Below, piece by piece: positions 7,246 to 59,031 of a stretch of DNA of 64,000 nt. The position numbers and the translations under genes were made by a program. Source of the DNA: Gammaproteobacteria bacterium (GTDB lineage Bacteria; Pseudomonadota; Gammaproteobacteria; Arenicellales; Poriferihabitantaceae); the NCBI GenBank assembly GCA_024644945.1, contig JAHEGU010000006.1, positions 39,143-103,142 of the forward strand, given 5' to 3'. The notes under the pieces were generated by a model. It made no database searches, was not told where the DNA came from, and saw only the letters and a list, made by a program, of their open reading frames with translations. How positions within the stretch are numbered: position 1 is the stretch's first letter; every line of letters starts with the position of its first letter.

Positions 7246-7280
7246 GATTTATACAATTTTATATACGAGAGAATTCAATC

Positions 7281-39827: not shown

Positions 39828-41255
39828 GTGCCACCTGACGCATCTACTATCTCGAATCGATTACCGCAGAGGCTGCTCGCGCTATCAATGTTAATACTGA
39901 TGCTATCGGTATTGATCGCACGTCATGATCCAGGAAAGCTGTTTGCCTTACTGTCTTATATTGCAATGGCCCTGGTGGCCCTGCTGTCAATTAGAAAAAT
40001 CGGGATCAGGGAAACCTATCTGTTAATTATCAGCGGATTGCTGTCCATCACAGTTTGTCTTGAGCACCCAGAACCATTGCATGCCTTTCAGGCCTCCCTC
40101 GATCAAGCAGCATTCATGATGGCCTTCATTCTGCTGCTTGGACTACTGTATGAAGCGGCGGTCAATTCACCAGCAATAACCGAATGCGGTCGCTACATCA
40201 CCAGGCAGCCGCCGGGGCGGCGTTTCGTATCACTTTATCTCGGTACTGGACTGATGTCGGTATTATTCAATCTTGGTGTCATCAGTCTGCTTACTCCCTT
40301 AATTCAAAGTGGTGTCAGAACCGTCAATCCGGGAGATCCACTTAATCCAATTCGGGAACGGCGTCAGCTGGTAGCGGTTCAACGGGGATTTGCATGGGGT
40401 ATTATCTGGTCACCCACGGCTCTGGCACCACTGACGATTCTCGACCTGGTGCCGGGTATCGACAGATCACGATGGATCTTGTTCGGTTTTATCATCGCCT
40501 CGATAGCCATGGTTATTGGATGGCTGGAAGATTATCTGCGGTTTCGCTACATCAGTCGCGCCAGAAAGACTCCTCGACCGACTCCCCCTGCTTTACCGCG
40601 CAGTGCACTGCTTCGATTTACCGCTGCTTTTTTCTGGCTGCTTTCCTTGACTCTTTGCTTCAGCTATACGTCAAACGACACTGTAGTATTCGGATTAATG
40701 TTGGCGTGCCCATTCATGATGCTTGGCTGGCTGTTAGCGCAGCAGGGATTTGTTGCAGGTGCGGTGTCACGTGCAAAAAAACAGCTAGGAATAGTGGTGT
40801 TTGAGAATCTGCCTCACGCCGCACCAGTATCCATCACCTTAGCCTGTTCCGGATTCATCGGTCGTGCGGCGGCGGCTCTGGTGCCCGCAGATCAGCTGAT
40901 CGCTGCCGCTGGTATCGATTTATTTCCCAACTACGTATTCCTTTCCCTACTGCCGCTGGCAATCACGTTGTTGTCTTTCATGGCGCTGAGTCCTATCGTC
41001 ACTTCGGTATTCCTTGGAAGTGTGCTGGGCAGTCTCGACGTCTTGCCTATTGATGCCACCTTGCTAGCTATCTCGATTTCCTGCGGATGGGCACTAGCCA
41101 TGACGGTGTCTCCTTTTGTGACATTGGTTCTGGTCATGGTGCGCGCGTCCGGACATACAGGGATAACGCTCTCGCTGAAGTGGAATTTTGGATTTGCACT
41201 GATGTCGGCACTCATGCTGTTTCCAATATTCTGGATTCTCACTGGTGGACGTTGA
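39828..41255 (+). CDS. polytopic membrane protein of unknown function
   Basis: 475 aa, about 12 hydrophobic segments, GTG start. I recognise no family signature. Confidence 0.5.
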   Translation: MPPDASTISNRLPQRLLALSMLILMLSVLIARHDPGKLFALLSYIAMALVALLSIRKIGIRETYLLIISGLLSITVCLEHPEPLHAFQASLDQAAFMMAFILLLGLLYEAAVNSPAITECGRYITRQPPGRRFVSLYLGTGLMSVLFNLGVISLLTPLIQSGVRTVNPGDPLNPIRERRQLVAVQRGFAWGIIWSPTALAPLTILDLVPGIDRSRWILFGFIIASIAMVIGWLEDYLRFRYISRARKTPRPTPPALPRSALLRFTAAFFWLLSLTLCFSYTSNDTVVFGLMLACPFMMLGWLLAQQGFVAGAVSRAKKQLGIVVFENLPHAAPVSITLACSGFIGRAAAALVPADQLIAAAGIDLFPNYVFLSLLPLAITLLSFMALSPIVTSVFLGSVLGSLDVLPIDATLLAISISCGWALAMTVSPFVTLVLVMVRASGHTGITLSLKWNFGFALMSALMLFPIFWILTGGR

Positions 41256-41281: not shown

Positions 41282-41494
41282 TGCAAATTCTTTTTGCAAA
41301 TAGCTTTGATTCTTATTTCCATTTGCAATATTAGTTTCCCGGGTTGTTTACAATAACGGACCCATTTGTGCAGGAGTTAGTTAATCTAGAAGGCAGAGAT
41401 CACGCGTTTGTGCAATCTGATTTGGATTTGCAGCCGTATTTCACAGCCGCTTCATCCGCATTTTGGGATCGTCTATCTGTTATCTGTATTTCAC
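41282..41494 (+). promoter_or_regulatory. repeat-rich upstream region of the HiPIP gene (multiple TGCAAAT/ATTTGCA, TTTGTGCA, TATCTGT and GTATTTCAC copies)
   Basis: TGCAAAT at 41282 and 41295. ATTTGCA at 41321 and 41426. TTTGTGCA at 41365 and 41407. Tandem TATCTGT at 41474 and 41481. GTATTTCAC at 41436 and 41486. AGGAG RBS at 41516-41520. Confidence 0.3.
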
Positions 41495-41528
41495 GATGTG
41501 TAACTTAAGTTTTTCAGGAGATTAAAAT

Positions 41529-41867
41529 ATGAAACAAGAAGATAAATTGCAACGACGAGAGTTCGTCAAGCTTGCTGTTGGCTCTGCGGTCGTCGTGCCA
41601 TTTTTAACCACTAACCAGGCTTTAGCCGGCGGGCACATGCCTCGGGTCGATGAAAGCGACCCGCAAGCTACTGCGCTAGGATACAAGCACGACAGCACTG
41701 CAGTAGACGGCTCCGCCTACGCTAATCATGAGGCGTCCCAGATTTGCTCTGGCTGCAATCTTTATCAGGGCAAGGAAGGCGACGAATGGGGCCCCTGTTC
41801 GATTTTTCCTGGCAAGGAAGTAGCCGCGGCAGGATGGTGTTCCGCCTTTGTTCCCAAGCCAAGTTAA
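41529..41867 (+). CDS. high-potential iron-sulfur protein (HiPIP) with Tat signal
   Basis: 112 aa. RREFVKLAVGSAVVVPF twin-arginine signal, and the Cys pattern CSGC...WGPC...GWC typical of HiPIP. Confidence 0.85.
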   Translation: MKQEDKLQRREFVKLAVGSAVVVPFLTTNQALAGGHMPRVDESDPQATALGYKHDSTAVDGSAYANHEASQICSGCNLYQGKEGDEWGPCSIFPGKEVAAAGWCSAFVPKPS

Positions 41868-41890
41868 ATCTGTACTGGAAAAGCAGGAAG

Positions 41891-41918
41891 TCCGGGCGCT
41901 TAAGTTACAGCGCCCGGA
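41891..41918. terminator. bidirectional hairpin between convergent genes (9-bp perfect GC-rich stem)
   Basis: TCCGGGCGC (41891-41899) and GCGCCCGGA (41910-41918) with a 10-nt loop, lying between the HiPIP stop and the DmdA-like stop. The T-tracts are weak on both sides. Confidence 0.55.
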
Positions 41919-41932
41919 TTAAGGCATCCCGA

Positions 41933-43045
41933 TCACATTGGCAAACCCGTCACTTTGCCCTCCCTGACCACTCGATCCTCACCCTCAACCAAAACCCGCT
42001 GTTGTTCCTCCCAGTAACCTCTTTCGATCATTGCCAAACCAACATTGGTCTTAAAACGCGGCGACCAGATCGCGCTGGTGACGTAACCAACGGGTTCGTC
42101 ATCGATCCTGACCGGCCACGGTATCGAACACGGCGGACAACGTTCTTGACCAAACTTGACGCCCCGGATGCTTCGTTCCGGCCCTGTCGCATAAATCTTC
42201 TGAAGTGCTTCACGTCCTATAAAATTTATGGATCCGTCAAGCTGGCAAAAGCGCTCAAGCCCGCATTCCAGGGGATTGTTATCAAGAGTCATCTCGTTGC
42301 CATAGGAAAGCAATCCCGCCTCGATTCGCTCAATCAAGTTAGGACAGCCGGGGGACACTTCCAGCCCTTGGCCTGCTTGCCACAAATTCGACCATAAACG
42401 ATCTCCTAGTTTGGGCTGATCGAGGTAAATTTCAAATCCTCCCTGTTTACTGAATCCCGACCGGGCGATAACCAGCGGCTGAGATTCAAAATCGAACCTA
42501 TCGAAAGTAAAAAACTTGAGTTTCCTGATCGCCTGGCCAAACACCTCCGCCATCAGATCATCCGCTTTCGGCCCCTGCACAGCCATGGGCCAGACGTCAG
42601 GTTCGCTAACTTCGACCTCGAGTCGCAGGCCATAGGAAAGCCCCTTGGCCCACAACAGCACATCGGAATCCGCCAACGATAACCAGTATCGATCGGCACT
42701 TAATTTAAGGATGACCGGATCATTTAACATACCTCCGTTATGGTCGACTAACGGTGCATAGAGGCACTGCCCGACAAAAGCGTTGCCGAGATCCCGCGGT
42801 GTCATCAGCTGCATCAGCTTAGTGGCGTCAGGTCCTTTAACCTCTACCTGTCGCTGACAACCAACGTCCCACAGTTGAACATGCTCGCGCAGATGCCAAT
42901 AGTCCTCTTCCACGCTACGGCTAAATCCCTTGGGCAAAATAGTGTGATTTACCACGGTGTATCCCGACACCCCGTGTTTCTCCACCTGCCTTTTATAAGG
43001 CGTGGAACGGATACGGCGGGAGCTCGCTAGCGTTAGAGAAGTCAT
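41933..43045 (-). CDS. dmdA: GcvT-family aminomethyltransferase, DmdA (DMSP demethylase)-like
   Basis: 370 aa. Segments RRIRSTPY...GVSGYTVVNHTILP, HVQLWDVGCQRQVEVKGPDA, VIARSGFSKQGGFEIY and CPNLIERIEAGLLSYGNEM closely resemble what I recall of characterised DmdA rather than canonical GcvT. Not verified by alignment. Confidence 0.6.
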   Translation of the reverse strand: MTSLTLASSRRIRSTPYKRQVEKHGVSGYTVVNHTILPKGFSRSVEEDYWHLREHVQLWDVGCQRQVEVKGPDATKLMQLMTPRDLGNAFVGQCLYAPLVDHNGGMLNDPVILKLSADRYWLSLADSDVLLWAKGLSYGLRLEVEVSEPDVWPMAVQGPKADDLMAEVFGQAIRKLKFFTFDRFDFESQPLVIARSGFSKQGGFEIYLDQPKLGDRLWSNLWQAGQGLEVSPGCPNLIERIEAGLLSYGNEMTLDNNPLECGLERFCQLDGSINFIGREALQKIYATGPERSIRGVKFGQERCPPCSIPWPVRIDDEPVGYVTSAIWSPRFKTNVGLAMIERGYWEEQQRVLVEGEDRVVREGKVTGLPM

Positions 43046-43057
43046 GAAGGCTCAGGA

Positions 43058-43414
43058 CTATTCAGACCACCATACGGTATAAGAATGCGGCGAGAGAATC
43101 ACCGGAATGTGATAACGCTGCTCACGCGCAACCATTGAAAACCGGATCACCACTTGTTTCAAATGTTGTGCCATATTTTCGATCTTGTGCATGTCAACAA
43201 AGTATTGGTGCCCGTAGACCACCATTTCAAACAACTGCTCCGAGTCTCCGTCGACAATCTCAACGGACTCAGCTATGCGTCCCTGTTCATCGCTAACTAC
43301 GTCGAACACGATCTTGTTCTCCAGCTCTGAACTCACGCCTAACAGCTGGACCCGGATGCCGCAGGCCGATTTTCCGCTAACGGCGTCGAGGATATGGGAA
43401 GATAATTCTGGCAT
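43058..43414 (-). CDS. transthyretin-fold protein (5-hydroxyisourate hydrolase family-like) lacking the C-terminal YRGS motif
   Basis: 118 aa. N-terminal SSHILDAVSGKSA and C-terminal RYHIPVILSPHSY fit the HIUase/TTR fold. The protein ends ...TVWWSE instead of ...YRGS. Confidence 0.7.
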   Translation of the reverse strand: MPELSSHILDAVSGKSACGIRVQLLGVSSELENKIVFDVVSDEQGRIAESVEIVDGDSEQLFEMVVYGHQYFVDMHKIENMAQHLKQVVIRFSMVAREQRYHIPVILSPHSYTVWWSE

Positions 43415-43436
43415 GTTGAACTAAGGTCTTCTCTGC

Positions 43437-45152
43437 TTATTCGATCGAAGCTTTATCGCGTTTGCTGGTTGTTGCCAGTACGATTGGACTGATATATCCC
43501 TTTGTCTTAACGTTGACACAAGCAGTCTTACCGCTATCAATAGCCCGCTTTAGAGCAGGCAACAGTTGCTCGGGACGTTCTACAAGTTCGCCGTGACCGC
43601 CCAGGCCCTCGAACATGTTATGAAACGGTATATCCCGAAAGTCGGTTGCAAAGTGATCTCCTGTCTCAAACATGCGCTCCTGCTGCTGAGAAATACAGTC
43701 GAGACCACCATTGTTGTCAATTACCACAACAATAGGCAGTTTCTCCTGAAACGCCGCCTCGACACTTAATCCCCCTGACAGGAACGCACCATCTCCGCTA
43801 ATCAGCACTATGTTTGAATCAGGGTTGTTCATCTTTGCTGCGATTGCAAACGATACGCCTACTCCAAGCATACTGAAGGTGCCGGGATGTAAAATACTAC
43901 CCAGCTTCTGCCCTCGCCAGCCGGCGATATTGACCGCAATCTCCGACCAGAAGTGCGTATTCCCCCCATCAATAACCAGCCAGTCATCTTTGCTCAATAC
44001 CGACTGTACCTCTAGCGCCAGACGCAACGGGTGAAGCAGTCCGTCAGACTCTTCCAGGGATGGAATATCTTTCTCCGTTTGTACCACCCACGCCTCTCTT
44101 TTCCGGCGGTTAAGTTCCATCCACTCCTGACTCCATTGGCGTTCATTTTCTAGACTTAAAATCGCATCCAGAAACGCGCCGGGATCACTCAGTAATTGCA
44201 CATCCGCCGGCCGGTTGTGTTCTAGCTCTTCATGGGAGCCGTTAATGCAAACCAGTTTTGTTGTATCCGGAAAAAAAGGCGGGTTACCAAAATTCATCTG
44301 ATTATCCAAACGCGCGCCGATCATCAACACAAGGTCAGATTCCTGGATCGCAAATTTCGACGGTGCGTATTGATGAAAATCTGCAAGACCCATGTAAGCC
44401 TCGCTCTCTTCCCCCAGGAGCTTCTGATGGTAAGGCACATTGAAAACAGGGATTCCAAGCAGCTTTCCTGCCTGCTCGAGCTTGGCTTCCGCGCCAGACC
44501 ACCAGACGCCATGACCACCGATTAACACTGGACGCATGGCTTGGCGCACTAACTCGAGCACGAATTCCAGATCCTGTGGATCGGGCCACGCTTTAGGAGG
44601 GGCAGTAAATCCTCTTGTGAAAGGGCGCTCTTCACGTCCCACGTCCTCCTCGAACGAACTGAACATAATGTCAACCGGCACGCTCAAGTGGACTGGACCG
44701 GGGTATCCACTGAGCGCAATTCTGAAAGCGCGGTCAACAAATTCAGGAATTCTCTCACCATCGGTGACCTGAGCGCTGTACTTAGTCAGAGGTGCTGCAA
44801 TCGCGACGTCGTCGATCTCCTTAAAGCCCCCGGAACCTTGGCGCCTCAGAGTACTCGAACCGGTCACAAAAATCACCGGAGAGCGCTCACCCCAGGCCTC
44901 CATCATAGAAGGGATTGCGTTGGCGAATCCCTCGGGTCCCACCAGGCACACCGCAGGATGACGGGTGATGCGGGTGTAACCGTCTGCGAGATGACCCGCC
45001 ACCTGTTCGTGGGGAGCATTGATCACCGGGATGCCGCAGGTCATAAATCCTTCAAGTGCTGGATTACAAAAACCACCACTCAGAGTAAATACCTGCTTCA
45101 CTCCTTTCTCTTTAAACGCACGCGCAAGTAGCATGCCCCCACGGATTTTCAT
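43437..45152 (-). CDS. thiamine-diphosphate-dependent enzyme of the ALS/POX/oxalyl-CoA decarboxylase/BFD family
   Basis: 571 aa from the ATG at 45152 (ATGA overlap with the upstream gene). Three-domain layout, N-terminal HEQVAGHLADGY, and ThDP motif GDGAFLSGG...VVVIDNNGG. Confidence 0.85.
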   Translation of the reverse strand: MKIRGGMLLARAFKEKGVKQVFTLSGGFCNPALEGFMTCGIPVINAPHEQVAGHLADGYTRITRHPAVCLVGPEGFANAIPSMMEAWGERSPVIFVTGSSTLRRQGSGGFKEIDDVAIAAPLTKYSAQVTDGERIPEFVDRAFRIALSGYPGPVHLSVPVDIMFSSFEEDVGREERPFTRGFTAPPKAWPDPQDLEFVLELVRQAMRPVLIGGHGVWWSGAEAKLEQAGKLLGIPVFNVPYHQKLLGEESEAYMGLADFHQYAPSKFAIQESDLVLMIGARLDNQMNFGNPPFFPDTTKLVCINGSHEELEHNRPADVQLLSDPGAFLDAILSLENERQWSQEWMELNRRKREAWVVQTEKDIPSLEESDGLLHPLRLALEVQSVLSKDDWLVIDGGNTHFWSEIAVNIAGWRGQKLGSILHPGTFSMLGVGVSFAIAAKMNNPDSNIVLISGDGAFLSGGLSVEAAFQEKLPIVVVIDNNGGLDCISQQQERMFETGDHFATDFRDIPFHNMFEGLGGHGELVERPEQLLPALKRAIDSGKTACVNVKTKGYISPIVLATTSKRDKASIE

Positions 45153-46258
45153 TTTTGTACGATCACTGAGTGATTGATCTGCTGAATTCCGGTACAACCT
45201 ATTTGCGCCATGGTGACACTGATCTCATTGCGCACAAGGTCTATCACCCGCTGGAGTCCATGCTCCCCATCAGCCCCCAGCCCATAAAGCAGAGAACGAC
45301 CCAGCATCACGAAACTCGCGCCCAGGGCGAGCGCCTTGACCACGCCTTCTCCACCTCGAATACCGCTATCAAAAAGCATTGGATAATCAGGCCCTAGAGC
45401 TTCACGCAGCAGCGGCAGCATGTCAATGGCAGCCGGTGCTGCGTCAAGTTGACGGCCGCCATGATTAGAGACATAAATTGAATCAATACCGGTGTTCTGA
45501 ATTCGTAACGCATCCTCGACAGACAGCACACCTTTAACGATCAGACGCCCTTTCCATCGACGCCGCAGGCGATCAAGAAACTCCCAGTCGACCAGACCCC
45601 GGCCGCCATCACGGTAAAACTCTCCCGGGGAAAAATTAGCCAGACTGGGCGCACCTGCCAACAACGTTTTTACAGACCAGCCGGGATGCAATGCAAAATC
45701 GACAATCTGCCTGACCCCGATTCGAAGCGGTGCTTCAAATCCATTTTTAAGATCACGGACCCGTGGCGCAACTTGCGGGACATCGACTGTAAGAATCAAT
45801 GTGGTATAGCCCGCGTCTTCGACGCGCTGCACAAGTTGCATGGCTTGGGATTCAGATTGCCCTACGTAGAGCTGAAACCAGCCGTTTTCTGGGATCCATT
45901 GTGCGACCTGTTCGAGGCTGGTGGAAGACATCGTGGACAGCGCCATCGGAATATCAAACTTTTTCGCCGCATCTGCCAACATCCGATCCGCATCTGGCCA
46001 AGTGAGATTGCACATCCCCATCGGTGCGATGCCGAAAGGAAGACCCCAGTCCCGATCAAGAAATCGAGTGCTAAGATCTCGCTGCGCCACATTCACCAAC
46101 ACTCTGGGTAGCAGTCGCAATTGCTGAATTTTCTCCTGATTCAGGCCATTGGCGTACTCGGCACCGGCGGCACCATCGACACAATCAAACATGATTTTCG
46201 GCATACGACGCCTGGCGTAACGGCGTGCGTCAGCGATGCAGTGAATCGGTTTTGCCAT
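45149..46258 (-). CDS. FMN-dependent alpha-hydroxy-acid dehydrogenase/oxidase (LldD/glycolate oxidase/mandelate dehydrogenase family)
   Basis: 369 aa from the ATG at 46258. Motifs VSNHGGRQLD, FDSGIRGG and PFGIAPMG. Confidence 0.85.
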   Translation of the reverse strand: MAKPIHCIADARRYARRRMPKIMFDCVDGAAGAEYANGLNQEKIQQLRLLPRVLVNVAQRDLSTRFLDRDWGLPFGIAPMGMCNLTWPDADRMLADAAKKFDIPMALSTMSSTSLEQVAQWIPENGWFQLYVGQSESQAMQLVQRVEDAGYTTLILTVDVPQVAPRVRDLKNGFEAPLRIGVRQIVDFALHPGWSVKTLLAGAPSLANFSPGEFYRDGGRGLVDWEFLDRLRRRWKGRLIVKGVLSVEDALRIQNTGIDSIYVSNHGGRQLDAAPAAIDMLPLLREALGPDYPMLFDSGIRGGEGVVKALALGASFVMLGRSLLYGLGADGEHGLQRVIDLVRNEISVTMAQIGCTGIQQINHSVIVQK

Positions 46259-46430
46259 TAAAGACCAGGTAGGTAATTTTATACATTTGTGGGTTGAAGT
46301 ATGGGCGATTACAGCGGCTTTGCAAACTGTTATCAATCCTGGATCAACGAGTTACGATTTGATCGTATTGCACCTTGAGATAAGAGAGTTTTACTTTCTG
46401 AATGGTAAACGAGGCAAATTGAAATGTCGC

Positions 46431-46439
46431 TGTTATAAT
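46431..46439 (+). promoter_or_regulatory. candidate extended -10 element (TGTTATAAT) for the ytoQ-like gene
   Basis: TGnTATAAT match at 46431-46439, 36 nt upstream of the ATG at 46475. No good -35 element. Confidence 0.3.
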
Positions 46440-46474
46440 TATTCTCGTTTACACCTTTATCCCTGGTTATAAAA

Positions 46475-46924
46475 ATGACGATGATCTGGTCCGTATATCT
46501 CTCCGGCGAAATTCATACCGACTGGCGTGAGCAAATCATGAGAGGTTGTGAATCTCTCGGATTACCGCTTGAATACATGTCCGCAGTGACCGACCATGAA
46601 GCCAGCGACGCTGCGGGGGATTTGCTGGGCGAAGAGAACAGCGGATACTGGCGCGATCACAAATCTTCCAAAGTGAATGGTATTCGCACCAAGACGCTGA
46701 TCGAAAATTGCGACATCGCAATAATCCGATTTGGCGACAAATACAAGCAGTGGAACGCGGCTTTCGATGCAGGGTACTGCGCAGCCATGAATAAACCTTA
46801 CATCACGCTTCACGCTGAAGACATCGTCCACCCTCTCAAGGAAGTAGACGCTGCAGCGATGGCCTGGGCGACGACACCCGAGCAGGTTGTTGGAATTCTA
46901 AAGTACGTAACCCAGGAGGGTTAG
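46475..46924 (+). CDS. YtoQ family protein (nucleoside 2-deoxyribosyltransferase-like fold)
   Basis: 149 aa. VYLSGEIHTDWREQI and FGDKYKQWNAAFDAGY match my recollection of B. subtilis YtoQ. Confidence 0.7.
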   Translation: MTMIWSVYLSGEIHTDWREQIMRGCESLGLPLEYMSAVTDHEASDAAGDLLGEENSGYWRDHKSSKVNGIRTKTLIENCDIAIIRFGDKYKQWNAAFDAGYCAAMNKPYITLHAEDIVHPLKEVDAAAMAWATTPEQVVGILKYVTQEG

Positions 46925-46995
46925 CCGTTTCAACCACGGCGAAGTTGTACAAAAAAATTAAAACGTGGAATATCGATCTGGTTAGAGTTTAAAAA

Positions 46996-47181
46996 ATGAG
47001 CCGGGAAACCATAAAAGCGATCGTGCTGGCGGGGCACGGTGCAACGGACAAGCTCGAATATGTCGACTTCCCGAAACCGGTTACAGCGGAAGACGAGTTT
47101 TTGATTGAGGTGCATACTTGCGGCATGGACAACCCCGACGTTTGGGCTCGTCAAGGAGCGTACACCACTGCTGGCTCCTGA
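46996..47181 (+). pseudogene. 5' remnant of a zinc-type alcohol dehydrogenase / quinone oxidoreductase (MDR family) gene
   Basis: A 61-codon ORF, IKAIVLAGHGATDKLEYVDFPKPVTAEDEFLIEVHTCGMDNPDVWARQGAY, equals the first ~55 residues of a ~330-aa MDR enzyme. It then stops 25 nt before the convergent OCD gene. Confidence 0.6.
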
Positions 47182-47206
47182 TATCGAACTGGTCGCTTTC
47201 GATCCC

Positions 47207-48220
47207 TTAACTAGGAATCTCAAATCCAGCGCCCGTAGAAATCGCTTTCTGATACGCCAAGGACGCTAACGCGAGATCCCCAATCGCCACTGCGCGAAAT
47301 ACAAAAGCAGTGCGCTCAGCTGGCGTCTGACGCCCAGAGACAGTGCCGCTGACCAGGCCGGTAATATCACCTCCTACCAACTCAATCTCAACCATCGGAT
47401 CGGGCATTGCGGCTTCCTGGGTCAGATCGTCAATAATGATCCGATCAAATGCCTTCATGCTCTCATCGATCCAAGGCAATGCAAGGTCAGTTGATGAGAC
47501 AAACACGCCCTGCTTCAGCCATCCCGCATCGATAAATGGGTCGACCCTGGAGGTAATGGGAATTGAAGATACAATAATGTCCGCATCGTCAACCGCGGAA
47601 TTTGCGTCATCACAGGGTACTGCCTTGAGACCCATTTTTGAGGCTGTATCGCACAGCAAATCGCGACTTTTGGTGCCGCGCCCAAGCGCTCGAATTTCTT
47701 TAATCGGGTATAGCGTGCTGAATAACTTTAGGTGGGCTCTGGACTGTAGACCAGTACCGATAAATGCCATTACCGAAGATTCTGCATTCGCCAGATACCG
47801 TGCCGCCAGCGCACTCGCTGCGGCAGTTCGCACAGCCGTAATCCAGTTACCGTCCAGATACGCAACCGGCACACCGGTCTGACCATTAAGTAACATGATT
47901 GATCCGTTGATAGCCTCCAGCCCCTGTTTAGCGTTCTCCTGATTGACAATCACCCCTTTAACCGCCATCAATGGTGGTTCGTCACAGGTCGACAAAGTAG
48001 CCATCAGATAACGGCCATCTGGCGTTGCCAGCGCGGCTTTAGGAGCGGCCTGCACGCTTCCCGCTGCCTGAGCCTTCAGTAATGTCTCAAGTTGCGTCAC
48101 CATCTCTTCAGTTTTGATATCGAGGGACTCAAGATTTTGCCGCGACAAATAGAGCATGGAGTTGTTTGAGTTGTTGAATTTGAATTCAATGGTAACAGGC
48201 TTGTTCATAGATTTTGTCAT
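47207..48220 (-). CDS. ornithine cyclodeaminase / mu-crystallin family protein
   Basis: About 337 aa (start at 48220 or 48208, uncertain). OCD-like pattern including the Rossmann FIGTGLQSRAHL and ...AVRTAAASALAARYLA. Confidence 0.75.
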   Translation of the reverse strand: MTKSMNKPVTIEFKFNNSNNSMLYLSRQNLESLDIKTEEMVTQLETLLKAQAAGSVQAAPKAALATPDGRYLMATLSTCDEPPLMAVKGVIVNQENAKQGLEAINGSIMLLNGQTGVPVAYLDGNWITAVRTAAASALAARYLANAESSVMAFIGTGLQSRAHLKLFSTLYPIKEIRALGRGTKSRDLLCDTASKMGLKAVPCDDANSAVDDADIIVSSIPITSRVDPFIDAGWLKQGVFVSSTDLALPWIDESMKAFDRIIIDDLTQEAAMPDPMVEIELVGGDITGLVSGTVSGRQTPAERTAFVFRAVAIGDLALASLAYQKAISTGAGFEIPS

Positions 48221-48244
48221 TCTGAAAGCTGCTAACTCGTCATT

Positions 48245-48260
48245 CCGGATTCCAATCCGG
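48245..48260. promoter_or_regulatory. perfect 7-2-7 palindrome CCGGATTccAATCCGG in the OCD/sulfotransferase divergent region
   Basis: Seen directly in the sequence. It lies 25-40 nt upstream of the preferred OCD start, and a related ATCCGG copy sits at 48351-48356. Confidence 0.3.
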
Positions 48261-48483
48261 GACTCGAAGCAGCTTCCTGGGGTCCAGGACCGGGTGTCGC
48301 GCACTTTTATCCAGATGGCAGAGTTCGTAGATTCATCATCTTGAAATCCGATCCGGGAATTAGGGCAAATATATAAGACCCTGAATACAGTGCAGAATGA
48401 CGCTTAGAAAGTTCGGTAAAGCTGGCCCCATCCAATCTTAAGTTATACTGCGGGCCAAATTCAATATCGATGTAATCCACGCC

Positions 48484-49383
48484 ATGGCAGCGCCTTTGAC
48501 CCGGCCAACTACGATCGAAGAGGTAAAGGCCCGTCTCGACCGCTTCAGTTCAGATGAAAGTAATAAGGCAGGCCTAAATTATCGGCCCAAACCAAGTGAC
48601 GTATTTATTGCGACCTATCCAAAATGCGGTACCACCTGGATGCAGCAGTTGGTCCATTGTCTGCGTACACGGGGGGATATGGGTTTCGCGGAGATCACAC
48701 AAGTCGTGCCCTGGCTTGAGCTGTCTTATGACTTAGGCATCGATAACTACGCCCCACAGATATCAGCTCCCCAAGCATTTAAATCCCATTTCTCTTGGAA
48801 TCAGATTCCCAAGGGCGGACGCTATATCCACGTGACCCGGAACCCTGAAGACGTACTGGTTTCATTCTACCGCTTCTTCGAGGGTTGGTTTTTTGAAACC
48901 GGCTCCATCAGTCTCGATAGTTTCGCCACTGAGCTTTTTCTTGGCGGAAGCGGATCCGGAAAATACTGGGATCACGTTGTCGATTGGTGGCCACATCGTC
49001 AACAAGAGAATGTTCTGTTTCTGACTTATGAAGACATGGTGGATGAACCTGACAGGATGATTGAACGTGTAGCCGACTTTATAGGCATAAACCTTGATCC
49101 GGAGCTGCGTTCGATTGCACTGGAGAATTCTTCGGCCGCGTTTATGCGTCAACACGCACATAAATTTGACGATCATGCTGTTCGACAGAAAACTGACCCA
49201 AGATGTGGGCTGCCGCTTAGCGGGGACTCCGCAAAGATTAGTGCCGAAGATAGTGGATCTCCAAAACCCAAAATAAGCATGCAACTCAAGGCTCGGCTGC
49301 AAACAAACTGGCAACAGATGGTCTTTCCAGTTACCGGACTAAAGGACTATCATCAGCTGCGTCAAAATATACTGGCTGGATGA
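48484..49383 (+). CDS. cytosolic-type PAPS-dependent sulfotransferase (Sulfotransfer_1-like)
   Basis: 299 aa. 5'-PSB loop YPKCGTTWMQQLV, catalytic-His context AFKSHFSW, and YIHVTRNPEDVLVSFYRF. Confidence 0.75.
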   Translation: MAAPLTRPTTIEEVKARLDRFSSDESNKAGLNYRPKPSDVFIATYPKCGTTWMQQLVHCLRTRGDMGFAEITQVVPWLELSYDLGIDNYAPQISAPQAFKSHFSWNQIPKGGRYIHVTRNPEDVLVSFYRFFEGWFFETGSISLDSFATELFLGGSGSGKYWDHVVDWWPHRQQENVLFLTYEDMVDEPDRMIERVADFIGINLDPELRSIALENSSAAFMRQHAHKFDDHAVRQKTDPRCGLPLSGDSAKISAEDSGSPKPKISMQLKARLQTNWQQMVFPVTGLKDYHQLRQNILAG

Positions 49384-51035: not shown

Positions 51036-52589
51036 CTATAACGGCAAAGGTTCCAGCCGTGGCTCATCGGTTTTGAGCCCTTCTTTACGCTTGACCACAT
51101 AGGCTTCAAGCTCCTCCACGATAGCGGGATCGATAGCCGGGGCTTCGAAATCCTCAAGCACTTTCTGCCATAGCTCCGTAGCACGCATGGTTGCATCCTT
51201 GGCTCCTGCTGCCTGCCAGTTCTCGTTGTTCTGCCAGTCACTTAAGAACGGTTCGTAAAAGGCAGTCTTGTATCGCGCCATGGTATGCCCACAGCCGAAG
51301 AAATGGCCTCCCGGTCCCACCTCCTGCATGGCTTCCAGACCAAGCTCCGCATCGTTAACCTCAATCGGTCGCAGAAGGTAACTCATGTGTTGCAGCATTT
51401 CGCAGTCCATCACAACTTTTTCAAAAGAAGCAACCAATCCACCCTCAAGCCAGCCGGCCGCGTGATAAATCAGATTACCGTGACCCATCACTGCACCCCA
51501 AAGCGCCATCTGCGTCTCCCAGACCGCCTGTCCATCCACTGTATTGGACGCGTTGCACCCACTCGTGCGGTAAGGCAACCGGTAACGACGGGCGAGCTGA
51601 CCGCCGGCCATATTAGCTAAAGAGTTTTCCGGGGTACCAAAGGCCGGTGCACCGGAACGCATATCAACATTGGAGGTAAAACCTCCATACACTACCGGCG
51701 CGCCGGGTCGGGTCAACTGCAACAGGCAGATACCGAGCAACGCCTCTGCATTCTGCTGCGCCAACGCAGCGGCCATCGTAGCCGGCGTCATCGCCCCCAT
51801 CAGGGTAAACGGTGTCACCGTTACCGGCTGACCCAGCATCGCGAGTTGCATCGCCCCATATGCCATGGAGTCGTCAAGCTTGCGAGGCGAGTTAATATTG
51901 ATATTAGTCATCACCGTTGGATGCTCGATCATTTGATCAAGACTAAGACCTTTCGCAATTGCCGCCATTGCCACTGCATCATGGACACGACCACCGCCAA
52001 TACCGATAGTGAAAAAAGGTTTATCGCTTAAAGTCAAATTAACTAGCGTGGTGTCCAGGTGACGACTGTTGGGTGGCAGATCAGTCGTCGCCACCCCCTG
52101 GGTCCCGATAAAACTGATCACATTGAAATACTGACCCAGACTGATAATTTTTTTGTAGTCGGCAAAGTTACCGGGCCGGCGGCCATTAATACAGTCGTGC
52201 ACATTGGGTGGTCCTGACACCAGACCGAAATTAATGCTGTTGCCACCGCAGTGTATAGTATTTTCCGGGTTTCGAGGGGTCACGCTGAACTCGGCCGGCG
52301 CACATGAAACCGTTTCCATTACTAATCCCCGATCCATCTTGACTATGCCGTCGGTAACCTCGGCGCCCGCTTTTCGAAATACATTCAGTGCCTGATCTCC
52401 CAGCACCTCGATGCCTTGCTGCTCGAGTATGTGCATCGAGGCCTCGTGGATTTTTTCCAGCTGCTCTTCGTTCAGGGGCTCTACGGGCGCCAGTCGACTC
52501 GTCAGCCTGGTTTTCTCCAGTTGCCGAATAGTGGGCGTCGGCTCGCTTGTTTCTGGTTCACGCCGTCTGCGGCGACCCGCACGCGCCAT
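51036..52589 (-). CDS. MttB-superfamily (trimethylamine methyltransferase-like) protein, non-pyrrolysine type
   Basis: 517-aa uninterrupted ORF with no in-frame TAG. Family-typical N-terminus LNEEQLEKIHEASMHILEQQGIEV and overall size. Confidence 0.8.
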   Translation of the reverse strand: MARAGRRRRREPETSEPTPTIRQLEKTRLTSRLAPVEPLNEEQLEKIHEASMHILEQQGIEVLGDQALNVFRKAGAEVTDGIVKMDRGLVMETVSCAPAEFSVTPRNPENTIHCGGNSINFGLVSGPPNVHDCINGRRPGNFADYKKIISLGQYFNVISFIGTQGVATTDLPPNSRHLDTTLVNLTLSDKPFFTIGIGGGRVHDAVAMAAIAKGLSLDQMIEHPTVMTNININSPRKLDDSMAYGAMQLAMLGQPVTVTPFTLMGAMTPATMAAALAQQNAEALLGICLLQLTRPGAPVVYGGFTSNVDMRSGAPAFGTPENSLANMAGGQLARRYRLPYRTSGCNASNTVDGQAVWETQMALWGAVMGHGNLIYHAAGWLEGGLVASFEKVVMDCEMLQHMSYLLRPIEVNDAELGLEAMQEVGPGGHFFGCGHTMARYKTAFYEPFLSDWQNNENWQAAGAKDATMRATELWQKVLEDFEAPAIDPAIVEELEAYVVKRKEGLKTDEPRLEPLPL

Positions 52590-52803
52590 CTATAACCTCT
52601 CTCTTGGTGGACTGGGTTTGATCAATTGTTGTGGGACACTCTAATGTCTGGCAATCTAACTGAAACGAATTATTCGCCGGTTAGCTTATCAATACTGGTG
52701 AAATTTAGACACACTCAAAACTAATTTTATGATCGCACGATTTGTCCCCACATTACGGCGATCCGAGACATTGAAGACGGCGGGCCATCTAGACGCACGG
52801 GTT

Positions 52804-53430
52804 TCAGTTAGTTTTTACCGCGGCATCTCTATAGGGCCTATAAACATAATATTTAGGTCTGTCATCTAACCGCACGTGCAACCATGCCACCCCACCACCA
52901 GCGGTATTCAGCCATAGCGGCCTATCACCAAGACGTTGCTGCACGCAGGCGCCTACTAGCTGCCAAAATGAATGTAACTGTTGAGCAGGCGCCGTTTTTA
53001 AAAAAGACAGGAGATGGCTGTAGGCCGAGTCGTCATCAACTGGACCTGGCAAGATCATGATCGCGTCACCCCCTAAATTCGGGAACGCCCCAACACCACT
53101 ATCGTCGATCCGCCTAAAAAGAGCGCGAAAGGTTTCCTTGTCAGCGCTTCCTTTCAATCCCGGACTATTCAGCACTGCACATTCAAATGGACCGTCCGCT
53201 GAGTGGGTAGTTAAAGGTGGAAATTCCCATCGTATCGCCGGGTAAGGAAGACCGGTAAGAAGTGTCGTGAAATAGTCTCGAAACACCCCCTTGTTAACCC
53301 ACATGGCAAAAACATCCCGGTAGGAAAGGACCGCATCGCCGCAGGTGATAGAGATTAACTGCCCCTCGATGCCCTTTAATTCCCGACTCGTATGACTATA
53401 CATGGAAGACTGAGAGGATTCGTTTGACAA
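52804..53430 (-). CDS. hypothetical protein, no family recognised
   Basis: 208-aa ORF (start at the TTG at 53430 or the ATG at 53403). Soluble, with distinctive IRWEFPPL and FPNLGGDAIMILPGP segments. Confidence 0.45.
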   Translation of the reverse strand: MSNESSQSSMYSHTSRELKGIEGQLISITCGDAVLSYRDVFAMWVNKGVFRDYFTTLLTGLPYPAIRWEFPPLTTHSADGPFECAVLNSPGLKGSADKETFRALFRRIDDSGVGAFPNLGGDAIMILPGPVDDDSAYSHLLSFLKTAPAQQLHSFWQLVGACVQQRLGDRPLWLNTAGGGVAWLHVRLDDRPKYYVYRPYRDAAVKTN

Positions 53431-53709
53431 TTGAAGCGGGTAAAACTCCGGATTGATCTAGCTCTCATTGGAGCGAGACAGGTAGAGTGATATCCGCAAG
53501 ATAGTTATCCAGAGTATCGGGGCTTGCTTGAGTAATTTGCGTTCTACTCATAGGAAAGAAGATTTTGAACACCAGATCAGCAGTTCGACTGATCACCAAG
53601 ATAAAGCCGGCGCAAAGATCCACTTTGATCGCAAATCCTGCTGACTTCTGATGCATATAAAATTTTTCAAAGCGTATCAATCGCTACACCCATCGTTATA
53701 GGTACGCGG

Positions 53710-54831
53710 TTACTCAGTCCCGGCACGCTCCAGCGCTCGCGCCAAATATTGATGGAAGTCCCAAACTGTTCCTTCCATATCCGGAGGCGCAAGTGGGCCA
53801 GGCACTTGAAATCGGGAGCCCATTCCATACTGAACCTGCTCAAGCACTTCTTTATCTTCCTGCATCGTATCCTGGAACAGTTTTATAGCGTTGTCTATCT
53901 GCTTCTGGTGCCATTGATCACCATAAAAAATCAACCCGATTTTAACTCGTACTTTGTCGATAGCCTCAGGCCTGATGCATAGAAACGAGCTGTAGTCACT
54001 GCCGATTCCAACGGTCAGCCCAGGTGGTATAGCAAACATTACACAGGTATCCATTTCTGCCTCAGACAGATCTGGATGACCAATACGATCCTCGGGGAGC
54101 CTGGTGCTGAATCCAACCTTGTATCCAAAATAAGCGGTTCCAGGTGCTAATTGTTGGCACAGGCTGGTGGGATTTACCTTATGAAGCGTGTTTCTGTGCA
54201 GTGGCGAGAGATGATAGCCCTCCATGAAATTCTCAACCAGTGTCTTCCAGTTTACCGGCCAGGTCTCATCGGACAGATATCGAAGCTGCATTTGTTCCAG
54301 ATGATAGTTGCCGATCTCCACATCCAGCGGGGCCAGCAACGCATGAAGATCCGGCGGGGACGAGGATAGAGACACGAAAAGGAAACCCTGCCATGTTTCA
54401 CAAGCCAGCTGCGGCAGGCGGCAGTTTGCCAGGTCGTAGTGGCTTGAAGGTTCTATTAACGGCGCGTTCACCAACTTGCCTGTAGTGTCATAGGCCCAAT
54501 GGTGATAGGGACAAAGCAGACTTTTAACATTGCCGGAATCTTTTAAGATGACAGTACCGCGGTGGCGACAGACGTTCGACAGCGCCCGAATCACCCCATC
54601 ATGGCTGTGAATCACTAATATCGGCTCAGAAGCAAGATCAAAGGTAATGTAATCTCCACTCTTATTAATTTCTTCCTCACGCCCGACGCAGATCCAGTGC
54701 TGCGCAAACAGTCTTTCTCGTTCGATATCTAGCCACTCCGTGTCGGTGTAAAAAGCACCGGGCAGGGACAATGCCTCAGCATAAGGTTTATCTTTTATTG
54801 CTCTTAAAACATCAAGAAATTCCGGTTTCAA
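53710..54831 (-). CDS. Rieske non-heme iron oxygenase alpha subunit, CntA/GbcA/choline-monooxygenase-like
   Basis: 373 aa. CRHRG-x16-CPYHHW Rieske motif, mononuclear iron motif NFMEGYHLSPLH, and size close to CntA. TTG start with GGGAG 9 nt upstream. Confidence 0.8.
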   Translation of the reverse strand: MKPEFLDVLRAIKDKPYAEALSLPGAFYTDTEWLDIERERLFAQHWICVGREEEINKSGDYITFDLASEPILVIHSHDGVIRALSNVCRHRGTVILKDSGNVKSLLCPYHHWAYDTTGKLVNAPLIEPSSHYDLANCRLPQLACETWQGFLFVSLSSSPPDLHALLAPLDVEIGNYHLEQMQLRYLSDETWPVNWKTLVENFMEGYHLSPLHRNTLHKVNPTSLCQQLAPGTAYFGYKVGFSTRLPEDRIGHPDLSEAEMDTCVMFAIPPGLTVGIGSDYSSFLCIRPEAIDKVRVKIGLIFYGDQWHQKQIDNAIKLFQDTMQEDKEVLEQVQYGMGSRFQVPGPLAPPDMEGTVWDFHQYLARALERAGTE

Positions 54832-54892
54832 TTAAGATTGCTCCCAGGGAAACGAATCCGGTCGAGCGGAGATTGTCGCAGGGGCACTGTAC

Positions 54893-55723
54893 TCACGTTG
54901 TTCTCCCATAAAACCCGAGCTGCTCTTCCTCTGAAAATAGTTTTCCAGGGTGTTCATAATACGAAAACACGGCAATCATTCTTTCTCTTGATCCAACCAC
55001 CGGGGTTATCCTGTGTGCGGTATTCTTACCACGAAATACACTTAGTGTGCCGGCTTTTAGACGCAGAATTTTCATTTTTGGGTCATCGCCACCAAGCAGA
55101 CGTGCGACGCCATCGTAATTTGGGTCGACGTCGTTGCGCAAACCGGTACGATACTGTAACTCACCCCCACCTTTTGGAGCTTGCAGAAGTAAGGTGGTAG
55201 TGAACTCCGAGCGATCAAAGTGCCAATTTAACCCTTCATGCTCACGATAAGACATCACGTTAACGCGCGCTAGCGGGTCATCCATCAAATAGAGCATAGT
55301 TTTATTCATTGTGTTCGCGAGAAACTTTATCAACGGAGGGTATTCATACACCTTGATCACGACACTGTTTTCGATTTGATCCGCGCACACAGTACGATTG
55401 GCGGTCTCAACCTGCACAAGAGCTGGGTGGTTAGGCTCAAGGCCTGGAACGCTATCAAGAAAATAAATGTTGTGCCGCCGCCGGTGAGTATAAGAATCAA
55501 TAGCCATCACCGGCTGCATTTCATCGACCGCTGCGCGGCAGACATCGGGGCGAAGAAAGCCTTCCAGATTAAACATTCCGATTCGTTCGAGATCTTTTTG
55601 ACATCGATCAACTAGCGACCGATAAGCGTCACTGTCGGGTCGCCCTATTGGATAGTTCTCAAGGTCGATCAGATTTTGCATAGTAACGTTAAGGTCAAGG
55701 TCAAAGAGATGGTCAATCAGCAT
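54893..55723 (-). CDS. 2-oxoglutarate/Fe(II)-dependent oxygenase superfamily protein
   Basis: HxD...H...R pattern (NWHFDRSEF; NTAHRITPVVGSRERMIAVFSY). The start is uncertain: ATG at 55723 or 55681. The longer ORF to 55894 would overlap the divergent gene. Confidence 0.6.
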   Translation of the reverse strand: MLIDHLFDLDLNVTMQNLIDLENYPIGRPDSDAYRSLVDRCQKDLERIGMFNLEGFLRPDVCRAAVDEMQPVMAIDSYTHRRRHNIYFLDSVPGLEPNHPALVQVETANRTVCADQIENSVVIKVYEYPPLIKFLANTMNKTMLYLMDDPLARVNVMSYREHEGLNWHFDRSEFTTTLLLQAPKGGGELQYRTGLRNDVDPNYDGVARLLGGDDPKMKILRLKAGTLSVFRGKNTAHRITPVVGSRERMIAVFSYYEHPGKLFSEEEQLGFYGRTT

Positions 55724-55814
55724 GCAATCTTTGTCAATGGGGCACCAGGCCGGTTGAATCGTCTGCGGCGATACAGGAAACTCGAGGTTTGTAGACACTG
55801 AATCGATTCTCCCC

Positions 55815-58988: not shown

Positions 58989-59031
58989 ATTTAACTCACA
59001 TCAAGGAATCCAGAGATGGATTGATCAAGGA

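Follow-up and report, generated by a model that had tools for sequence, protein, structure and literature searches.

Why should a gene of the dimethylsulfoniopropionate (DMSP) demethylase family, dmdA, stand at the end of a tightly packed operon behind genes for a hydroxy-acid dehydrogenase, a thiamine diphosphate (ThDP) enzyme and a protein of the transthyretin fold? The question is raised by a 64,000-nucleotide stretch of contig JAHEGU010000006.1, from a gammaproteobacterium of the order Arenicellales, which we call the window. The four genes, in operon order, are as follows.

45149..46258, minus strand: first operon gene, a flavin mononucleotide (FMN)-dependent L-2-hydroxy-acid dehydrogenase, LldD/MdlB-like, 369 amino acid residues from ATG
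43437..45152, minus strand: second gene, a ThDP-dependent enzyme of a distinct subfamily, 571 residues from ATG
43058..43414, minus strand: third gene, a transthyretin/5-hydroxyisourate-hydrolase-fold protein of the 'WWS' subfamily, 118 residues
41933..43045, minus strand: last operon gene, by family a DmdA-type, tetrahydrofolate (THF)-dependent S-demethylase, 370 residues

An earlier note on this DNA, made from the letters alone, had proposed that these genes feed a methylated 2-hydroxy acid into DMSP-type demethylation. Its coordinates for the four packed genes are exact. The stop codon of the dehydrogenase gene (TGA, 45149–45151) and the start codon of the ThDP gene (ATG, 45150–45152) overlap in an ATGA; 22 nt separate the ThDP gene from the transthyretin-like gene, and 12 nt separate the latter from the DmdA gene. 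An independent gene caller chose the same four starts on three identical metagenome contigs. The genes are co-oriented and translationally coupled. The family assignments of the note were also upheld, by Pfam and NCBIfam profiles and by matches to solved structures; public annotation uses the names 'DMSP demethylase', 'thiamine pyrophosphate-binding protein' or 'acetolactate synthase', and 'hydroxyisourate hydrolase'. We report that the operon is co-inherited across phyla, and we suggest, tentatively and at a little less than an even chance, that it is a self-contained, horizontally mobile catabolic unit for a small DMSP-related organosulfur acid.

Is the arrangement peculiar to this genome? 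A scan for the ThDP protein, with one genome per species, found 506 relatives, and gene neighbourhoods were taken from the best 80 of the 506, which are 72–82% identical to the window protein. Occupancy counts include only loci (L numbers below) whose contig reaches far enough. Carriers among the best 80 belong to Arenicellales, 'Poriferihabitaceae', Granulosicoccaceae, Acidiferrobacterales, Chloroflexota (Anaerolineales, Promineifilaceae), Hoeflea and other Rhizobiaceae, Pelagibius, Kiloniellales, Geminicoccaceae and SAR116, together with about 30 Pelagibacterales (SAR11), including HTCC8051, HIMB1709 and Uisw_090. In 76 of 80 loci the transthyretin-like gene is the very next one after the ThDP gene, a DmdA-type gene lies downstream in 67 of 77 assessable loci, and an FMN dehydrogenase gene lies upstream in 66 of 74. 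All four genes in the order of the window are found in 55 of 73 assessable loci, including those of Arenicellales, Chloroflexota, Hoeflea, SAR116 and SAR11, so that the arrangement on which the earlier note had rested its proposal is conserved in relatives. The constant core of the module is the pair made up of the ThDP and transthyretin-like genes.

The short or overlapping junctions persist in Gammaproteobacteria, Chloroflexota and several alphaproteobacterial orders. Pairwise distance matrices of the four proteins are correlated at r = 0.92–0.96, which fits inheritance and transfer of the genes as a unit, with a contribution from shared species phylogeny. At L088 unrelated genes, MoxR/VWA and housekeeping, lie on either side of the module, which is therefore self-contained. 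The closest relatives of the window operon are in Arenicellales metagenome-assembled genomes, with 90% identity of the DmdA-type protein. No plasmid copies of the ThDP enzyme were found, and a recent horizontal transfer into the window genome is not supported, the GC content of the four genes being that of their flanks. Clustering at 90% identity puts the SAR11 ThDP protein in a group of 2449 members, from which we conclude that ocean metagenomes commonly carry the module.

Is the last gene truly of the DmdA kind? The 370-residue protein has GCV_T (PF01571, E 6e-39) and GCV_T_C (PF08669, E 2e-10) domains, scores 556.5 bits against a cut-off of 410 with NF009133, the NCBIfam DMSP demethylase equivalog, and matches the SAR11 DmdA structure 3tfh with E 4e-117. 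The corresponding proteins of the module in SAR11, SAR116, Hoeflea and Chloroflexota, here called cluster-type, score 511–552 bits, and all those tested pass; for reference, canonical 3tfh scores 637 bits and other GcvT-like paralogues score 90–191 bits. The window protein is 47% identical to SAR11 DmdA and 48–53% identical to Roseobacter DmdAs, which have only 42–43% identity with the SAR11 protein. The Roseobacter references were plasmid-borne dmdA genes in canonical contexts, from Marinovum, Phaeobacter inhibens DSM 17395 and Antarctobacter. In a neighbor-joining tree, 69 cluster-type proteins are monophyletic and sister to the Roseobacter DmdAs of dmdA-acuI and dmdCDBA contexts, with SAR11 3tfh outside and the other GcvT-like paralogues far away; this is a distance tree only, with a reference set lacking the sequence of R. 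pomeroyi itself and the published clades A–E. On its profile score and its place between the SAR11 and Roseobacter proteins, the window protein is assigned to the DmdA family, as the earlier note had it, within the span of the known DmdAs. By parsimony, the cluster-type clade would descend from a DMSP demethylase.

Within SAR11 genomes, the cluster-type proteins are only 45–47% identical to canonical SAR11 DmdA. The folate contacts Glu204 and Tyr206 (3tfh numbering) are conserved. A Trp has been termed the DMSP-specific residue of DmdA (PMC7487153). The position of 3tfh Trp197 is Tyr or Phe in cluster-type proteins and is Tyr also in canonical Roseobacter DmdAs; because of the latter, we dropped this change as a sign of a different substrate. 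As in the DMSP demethylation pathway, the module ends in a DmdA-family member, and a few variants add an enoyl-CoA hydratase. The canonical contexts of dmdA are dmdB-dmdA-acuI in Marinovum, dmdC-dmdD-dmdB-dmdA in Phaeobacter and dmdA-acuI in Antarctobacter. In SAR11 the canonical dmdA lies away from the module in a dmdC-dmdB-hydrolase-dmdA context, a gene order also seen here (Sun et al. 2011, PMC3160333). In contrast to the module, none of these contexts contains the FMN dehydrogenase, ThDP or transthyretin-like genes, and the cluster-type DmdAs form a clade of their own.

These observations bear on another explanation, mere co-location. That is, an ordinary DMSP demethylase gene would have been fused to a generic lactate or 2-hydroxy-acid unit, the two being co-regulated but metabolically independent. 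The DmdA is indeed an ordinary family member by sequence, about 10 loci have the ThDP and transthyretin-like genes but no DmdA, and the steps are joined by no experimentally linked intermediate. Nevertheless, we regard co-location as quite unlikely, given that gene order and tight junctions are kept across phyla, that the distance matrices are strongly correlated, and that SAR11 keeps its canonical dmdA elsewhere with the cluster-type copy in a separate monophyletic clade, a pattern expected for a dedicated function.

What, then, would the other three proteins do? The first matches PF01070 over its full length (residues 15–366, E 6e-119) and has the SNHGGRQLD motif. It misses the LldD cut-offs, with 269 versus 376 bits (PRK11197) and 230 versus 550 bits (NF033901), and its closest structures are L-lactate oxidase 7f22 and the full-length (S)-mandelate dehydrogenase 6bfg. 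Transfer of electrons to quinone is the behaviour of the LldD/MdlB family. In some lineages the slot is held by another enzyme. Granulosicoccaceae L015 has a PanE/ApbA-family 2-oxo-acid reductase in place of the FMN dehydrogenase. In Pelagibius sp. Alg239-R121 (L059 6893–14466), the order is TctCBA, ThDP enzyme, transthyretin-like protein, GlcD-like flavin adenine dinucleotide (FAD) oxidase and TauD-like dioxygenase; this module is without FMN dehydrogenase and without DmdA, the TauD-like dioxygenase (285 bits versus the taurine dioxygenase cut-off of 313) being in the DmdA position. Three unrelated 2-hydroxy/2-oxo-acid oxidoreductase families thus occupy the dehydrogenase slot, and the step is functionally conserved. 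The variation supports the logic of hydroxy acid to oxo acid to ThDP enzyme.

The earlier note had taken the mandelate pathway as precedent for this logic, and the comparison holds well. In that pathway, MdlB is an FMN (S)-mandelate dehydrogenase, MdlC is a ThDP benzoylformate decarboxylase and MdlD is an aldehyde dehydrogenase. As with MdlB-MdlC-MdlD, an LldD/MdlB-type FMN dehydrogenase gene lies directly upstream of, and coupled to, that of a ThDP enzyme of the same superfamily. There are differences, as follows. The module has no aldehyde dehydrogenase, its ThDP enzyme is nearer to 2-hydroxyacyl-coenzyme A (CoA) lyase (HACL), oxalyl-CoA decarboxylase (OXC) and benzaldehyde lyase (BAL) than to MdlC, it adds a transthyretin-fold protein and a member of the THF-dependent demethylase family, and its hosts are marine oligotrophs and symbionts rather than aromatic degraders.

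The ThDP enzyme has the three TPP_enzyme Pfam domains (PYR, middle and PP), and it falls below the cut-offs of all 25 NCBIfam families listed, the best being PRK05858 with 303 versus 587 bits. The nearest solved structures, at about 30% identity, are HACL/S (2-hydroxyacyl-CoA lyase/synthase), oxalyl-CoA decarboxylase and benzaldehyde lyase; pyruvate oxidase ranks far behind. The catalytic Glu (HEQ, residue 48) and GDGAF...NNGG (453–483) are invariant in the orthologues, GGFKE, an F-x-E motif, is retained, and the C-terminal 8-residue tail KRDKASIE is invariant as well. Across 81 orthologues, conservation reaches 97% or more in 51% of the columns. The ThDP enzyme has a mean pairwise identity of 0.77, the dehydrogenase and DmdA 0.58–0.61, and the transthyretin-like protein 0.47. 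By sequence, then, the ThDP enzyme is a distinct and extremely constrained subfamily.

With HACL/S and oxalyl-CoA decarboxylase the enzyme shares the three-domain architecture, the catalytic Glu, the F-x-E carbanion-protonation motif and a conserved C-terminal tail. In ApbHACL/S, R260 and R400 bind acyl-CoA, and R156 and R276 bind ADP (PMC11271303). Mapped by a pairwise HMMER alignment to the HACL/S enzyme plus a numbering offset, R260 becomes D258, R400 becomes E404 and R156 becomes Y150 in the window enzyme, with R276 kept as Arg, and these residues are invariant in the 81 orthologues. Since the acyl-CoA arginines are replaced by invariant Asp and Glu, the ThDP enzyme does not look like a CoA-ester lyase, and a CoA-dependent lyase or synthase role is disfavoured. 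The same residues speak to a scheme of one-carbon elongation, in which the ThDP enzyme would act as a 2-hydroxyacyl-CoA synthase on formyl-CoA and a DMSP-derived aldehyde, with the dehydrogenase then oxidising the hydroxy acid. The nearest solved structures are indeed those of 2-hydroxyacyl-CoA lyases/synthases; yet with both acyl-CoA arginines turned acidic, one ADP arginine turned into Tyr and no CoA ligase or transferase in the module, we consider such elongation very improbable indeed.

The ThDP enzyme belongs to an isolated family. A library of 1.84 billion representatives at 50% identity gave full-length relatives at 66% (one), 47% (one, P0191) and 36% (one, P0196), all others being at or below 36%. 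The diagnostic motifs are common to the window family, P0191 and P0196. The P0191 cluster (L089 7158–12166, L090 2622–7630) has the order short-chain dehydrogenase/reductase (SDR), ThDP enzyme, 4HBT hot-dog hydrolase and split transketolase, and is adjoined by a LysR regulator, a PF03601 transporter, which we take to be of the family named as putative sulfate exporters, and an NMT1/SsuA-type ATP-binding cassette (ABC) importer. It looks like an uncharacterised sulfonate-type catabolic cluster. P0196 (L091 2468–9743; 36–37% identical) comes after a betaine ABC importer of the OpuAC type and a GMC oxidoreductase resembling choline dehydrogenase, a context from which one may suspect that its ThDP chemistry works on a quaternary-ammonium or sulfonium alcohol after oxidation. 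Each of the three branches has a dehydrogenase before the ThDP enzyme, and two have a small hydrolase-fold protein after it.

Could the ThDP enzyme instead be a C–S lyase of the Xsc kind? In such a scheme a 3-substituted pyruvate is decarboxylated and the carbanion expels the sulfur group, leaving acetyl-ThDP; the substrates would be sulfopyruvate, methylthiopyruvate or dimethylsulfoniopyruvate, made by the dehydrogenase from the matching lactates, and the hydrolase-fold partner would aid acyl release. The dehydrogenase, ThDP enzyme and small hydrolase of P0191 in their sulfonate-like setting, the importer and oxidoreductase ahead of P0196, the motifs shared by the three branches, and the Pelagibius variant, with its near-threshold taurine-dioxygenase-like gene and tripartite tricarboxylate transporter (TTT), all point this way, and C–S cleavage would explain why an aldehyde dehydrogenase is dispensable. 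The known precedent runs from sulfolactate through sulfopyruvate and sulfoacetaldehyde to acetyl phosphate and sulfite, by SlcD, ComDE and Xsc. The module resembles it in having a hydroxy-acid dehydrogenase followed by ThDP chemistry and, in one variant, TTT-type uptake. However, the ComDE and Xsc families are unmatched, the Xsc models giving 195 bits versus cut-offs of 620–676, and genes for sulfite handling, such as a sulfite exporter or sulfite dehydrogenase, are not conserved with the module. We know of no natural pool of 3-dimethylsulfonio- or 3-methylthio-lactate, and sulfolactate as the substrate would leave no more than a thematic link to DmdA. On balance, a C–S lyase of this kind seems unlikely.

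The transthyretin-like protein matches PF00576 (E 8e-18) and reaches 63.7 bits versus the cut-off of 87.45 for TIGR02962, the equivalog of 5-hydroxyisourate hydrolase (HIUase). Bacterial HIUases are its closest relatives in a search of solved structures, and its AlphaFold model (pLDDT 89) gives Foldseek TM values of 0.83–0.84 to HIUases at 25% identity. His7, Gly45-Arg46 and Tyr101-His102-Pro104 are invariant in the subfamily and align with the catalytic His/Arg/His positions of HIUases. The subfamily ends in SY(S/T)xWWS, with WWS invariant, and the window protein ends in SYTVWWSE. HIUases are defined by a C-terminal YRGS. Thus, compared with HIUase (PucM/HiuH), the window protein keeps the fold (TM 0.84) and the His/Arg/His positions but is below the equivalog cut-off, has WWS for YRGS, and has no purine-catabolism genes nearby. 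As the C-termini line the central channel in HIUase and transthyretin tetramers, we conjecture, by analogy, that the WWS subfamily presents a tryptophan-rich pocket; such a pocket would, again conjecturally, suit an onium or hydrophobic ligand.

From these parts we propose the following scheme. The FMN dehydrogenase would oxidise an L-2-hydroxy acid to the 2-oxo acid, passing electrons to quinone. The ThDP enzyme would act on the free 2-oxo acid, not on a CoA ester, and cleave C1–C2 by decarboxylation, like benzoylformate decarboxylase. The transthyretin-fold protein, with its hydrolase-type His/Arg/His site kept, would act with the ThDP enzyme, either on the product or as a partner. The DmdA-type enzyme would move an S-methyl group to THF, taking it from the product or from the imported precursor, i.e., after or before the other steps. 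Candidate substrates are 4-dimethylsulfonio-2-hydroxybutyrate (DMSHB) and 4-methylthio-2-hydroxybutyrate (MTHB), of the transamination pathway from methionine to DMSP, and the products would enter the demethylation route of DMSP and methylmercaptopropionate (MMPA). DMSHB and MTHB are the leading candidates because they are, to our knowledge, the only known DMSP-related 2-hydroxy acids. The route from DMSHB through DMSP to MMPA is a reasonable candidate, though unproven. For the general scheme of hydroxy acid, oxo acid, ThDP enzyme and DmdA, in which DMSHB or MTHB as substrate is a guess, our confidence comes near to an even chance without reaching it.

The earlier note had held that the gene for conversion of DMSHB to DMSP is not firmly assigned. 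This stands only in part, since the DsyD domain of DsyGD was assigned in 2024 as a DMSHB decarboxylase, while the step is, according to the authors, still unknown in most producers (PMC11306096). DsyD is ureidoglycolate-lyase-like (PF04115), is fused to a methyltransferase and is confined to Gynuella and some Oscillatoriales (PMC11306096). If DMSHB is the right candidate, DsyGD would carry out the same net step as the operon; it is unrelated in sequence to any operon protein. A review of June 2026 (PMC13360808) brings nothing more. In the searchable full-text literature, subscription papers being outside its scope, dmdA or DMSP is not linked to a transthyretin-like or hydroxyisourate-hydrolase gene, nor to a ThDP plus lactate-dehydrogenase-like neighbour, and no pathway of this composition was found, in agreement with the note.

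Neighbouring genes give some indication of the compounds handled. In Hoeflea, a tripartite ATP-independent periplasmic (TRAP) DctPQM system is fused directly upstream of the module, in Pelagibius TctCBA lies upstream, and in SAR11, SAR116, Granulosicoccaceae and Chloroflexota the module is found with an Opp/Dpp-type ABC system. We count the carboxylate importers joined to the operon (TRAP and TctCBA) in favour of the proposed scheme. The binding proteins were dropped as a clue to the ligand, since the matches of Hoeflea DctP and of the SAR11 family-5 binding protein to solved structures are all distant and uninformative. In four alphaproteobacterial single-cell genomes (L075 and L081–L083, about 6581–7504), the operon includes a homocysteine S-methyltransferase gene (PF02574), and in the same four an enoyl-CoA hydratase gene follows DmdA. 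A PF02574 gene is also found 2 kb from the module in an Arenicellales relative of the window (L087 13437–14342), a lineage unrelated to the former. The PF02574 family includes betaine- and S-methylmethionine-dependent enzymes. The PF02574, enoyl-CoA hydratase and TauD-like neighbours share a sulfonium/DMSP theme and are likewise counted in favour. For comparison, SAR92 carries dmdA-acuH (PMC10746254).

A separate neighbourhood is seen in four gammaproteobacterial loci (L040, L043, L049 and L079; e.g., L043 13176–16291), where a GntR/UTRA regulator precedes the module, and a PF08241 S-adenosylmethionine-dependent methyltransferase, an isochorismatase-family hydrolase, a dimethylformamidase-beta-like protein and a GNAT protein are encoded downstream. 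The DsyG/DSYE MTHB methyltransferases have a domain of the PF08241 type too.

In SAR11 (L058 8144–15270 and about 20 others), a peptidase S51 gene lies upstream and overlaps the start of the FMN dehydrogenase gene, and genes for a thiolase and a branched-chain (class IV) aminotransferase (466 bits versus a cut-off of 396) lie downstream; the neighbourhood also holds an ABC importer of the Opp/Dpp type and another GcvT-like paralogue (30–34% identical). These loci bring up a salvage explanation, i.e., the transamination pathway run in reverse. The DmdA-type enzyme would convert DMSHB to MTHB, the FMN dehydrogenase would convert MTHB to 4-methylthio-2-oxobutyrate and the aminotransferase would yield methionine, with the ThDP enzyme draining excess oxo acid to methional and MMPA. 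Class IV-type aminotransferases close methionine salvage in several bacteria, and SAR11 requires reduced sulfur. The continuation of about 20 SAR11 operons into such an aminotransferase suits this explanation, as do the homocysteine S-methyltransferase genes near the module and the optional status of DmdA in some lineages, which is expected if a methionine-derived oxo acid enters directly. Yet salvage makes accessories of the ThDP enzyme and transthyretin-like protein, which are the invariant core, the aminotransferase is restricted to SAR11, and we know of no DmdA activity on DMSHB. We therefore consider salvage improbable.

The decarboxylation scheme has difficulties of its own. A plain decarboxylase would give an aldehyde, yet only 6 of 80 loci have an aldehyde dehydrogenase gene within or close to the module (in the operon in L005, upstream in L032), 74 being without one nearby. 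In the window, neither an aldehyde dehydrogenase nor any of dmdB, dmdC, dmdD/acuH and acuI is found among the annotated genes flanking the operon (roughly 30–63 kb). The following points also weigh against the scheme. Across the 80 loci, dmdB, dmdC and dmdD are not linked to the module, an enoyl-CoA hydratase being present in 4–5 only. The transthyretin-like protein, the most faithful partner of the ThDP enzyme, has no step in the scheme, nor does DMSHB-type chemistry explain why the ThDP enzyme is so extremely constrained. Many Granulosicoccaceae loci are without any dehydrogenase. The types of transporter vary (Opp/Dpp-type ABC, TRAP, TTT), and the imported compound may differ by lineage. 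Lastly, enzymes of the FMN-dehydrogenase family are L-specific, and the algal DMSHB and MTHB are, in what Summers et al. reportedly found in 1998, D-enantiomers.

It is tempting to propose a broader alternative. The operon may encode an unrecognised, environmentally abundant organosulfur pathway of SAR11, SAR116 and bacteria living with sponges or algae, in which a new class of ThDP enzyme and a repurposed HIUase-fold protein act on a sulfonium or thioether 2-oxo acid and feed a dedicated DmdA paralogue. This could be a general conversion of DMSHB to DMSP in the catabolic direction, or it could be a ThDP-dependent C–S cleavage. We hold such a pathway to be possible, while leaning somewhat against it.

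The DNA flanking the operon contains two further features, as follows.

41891..41918, no strand assigned: GC-rich hairpin with a 10-bp stem, in the gap between the convergent DmdA and high-potential iron-sulfur protein (HiPIP) genes
46259..46474, no strand assigned: divergent intergenic region of 216 bp, the presumed promoter region of the operon, with a palindrome at 46353–46367 inside

The hairpin, reported in the earlier note, is well founded, with a minimum free energy of −26.9 kcal/mol and z −3.5, and none of 200 shuffles folds as well. It is probably a bidirectional terminator; a simple terminator scan did not call it because a clean T-run is absent. The palindrome, TACGAT-ttg-ATCGTA (6+3+6), is present in the 216-bp gap as described, but its standing as a regulatory site is lost. 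By chance alone, a 6+6 palindrome should turn up about this often, and in the 68 upstream regions compared it is absent from all 65 relatives and is seen, besides the window, in two identical metagenome contigs alone. We therefore do not take it as evidence of an operator, and that role was dropped. Promoter-like matches are no commoner than in shuffled sequence, with none on the minus strand inside 46259–46474. No riboswitch or other Rfam family was found in 41400–46800, nor were riboswitches found upstream of the module in SAR11.

Several neighbours in the window are recorded here for completeness. Beyond the hairpin, a 475-residue open reading frame without a Pfam match (39828–41255, plus strand) adjoins the HiPIP gene and is conserved there in relatives, being called as 455 residues in L001 and L087. 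In Arenicellales, sarcosine-oxidase genes downstream proved to be an ordinary gcvT-H-P set. Upstream of the operon, 46475–49383 holds genes for a YtoQ-type nucleoside 2-deoxyribosyltransferase-like protein, an ornithine cyclodeaminase/mu-crystallin and a sulfotransferase; synteny of the first two extends to L087, and no link to the operon was found. Farther on, 51036–55894 (minus strand) encodes an MttB-family methyltransferase (517 residues), a DUF6940 protein, a Rieske ring-hydroxylating-type oxygenase and a HalD-like 2-oxoglutarate oxygenase. This segment resembles a betaine/osmolyte demethylation neighbourhood, and its MttB and DUF6940 genes are syntenic in the relative L087. Finally, a 1004-residue protein (58921–61935, plus strand), encoded after an ArsP-type permease, has a phosphopantetheine-binding site and AMP-binding adenylation and acyltransferase domains and is nonribosomal peptide synthetase-like or lipid-modifying.

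In sum, the operon assembles known enzyme families in a mandelate-like layout and is spread through SAR11, SAR116 and symbionts. The two new subfamilies have clear sequence signatures, the ThDP enzyme with 51% near-invariant columns and the transthyretin-fold protein with its WWS terminus. By composition, subfamilies, spread and abundance, the module is a strong target for experiment, and cultured carriers are at hand in Hoeflea sp. TYP-13, Pelagibius sp. Alg239-R121 (the TauD-type variant) and Pelagibacter HTCC8051, HIMB1709 and Uisw_090. The operon offers a clonable candidate for the catabolism of DMSHB or its conversion to DMSP, or for the fates of the hydroxy and oxo acids of the methionine pathway. 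The turnover of DMSP controls the loss of marine sulfur as dimethyl sulfide, and dmdA is the standard marker gene of the demethylation branch. As the cluster-type proteins form a separate clade and are encoded with three uncharacterised enzymes, counts of 'dmdA' in surveys may partly reflect a different or extended pathway. We suggest that the operon probably marks an unrecognised step in the cycling of sulfur in the ocean.

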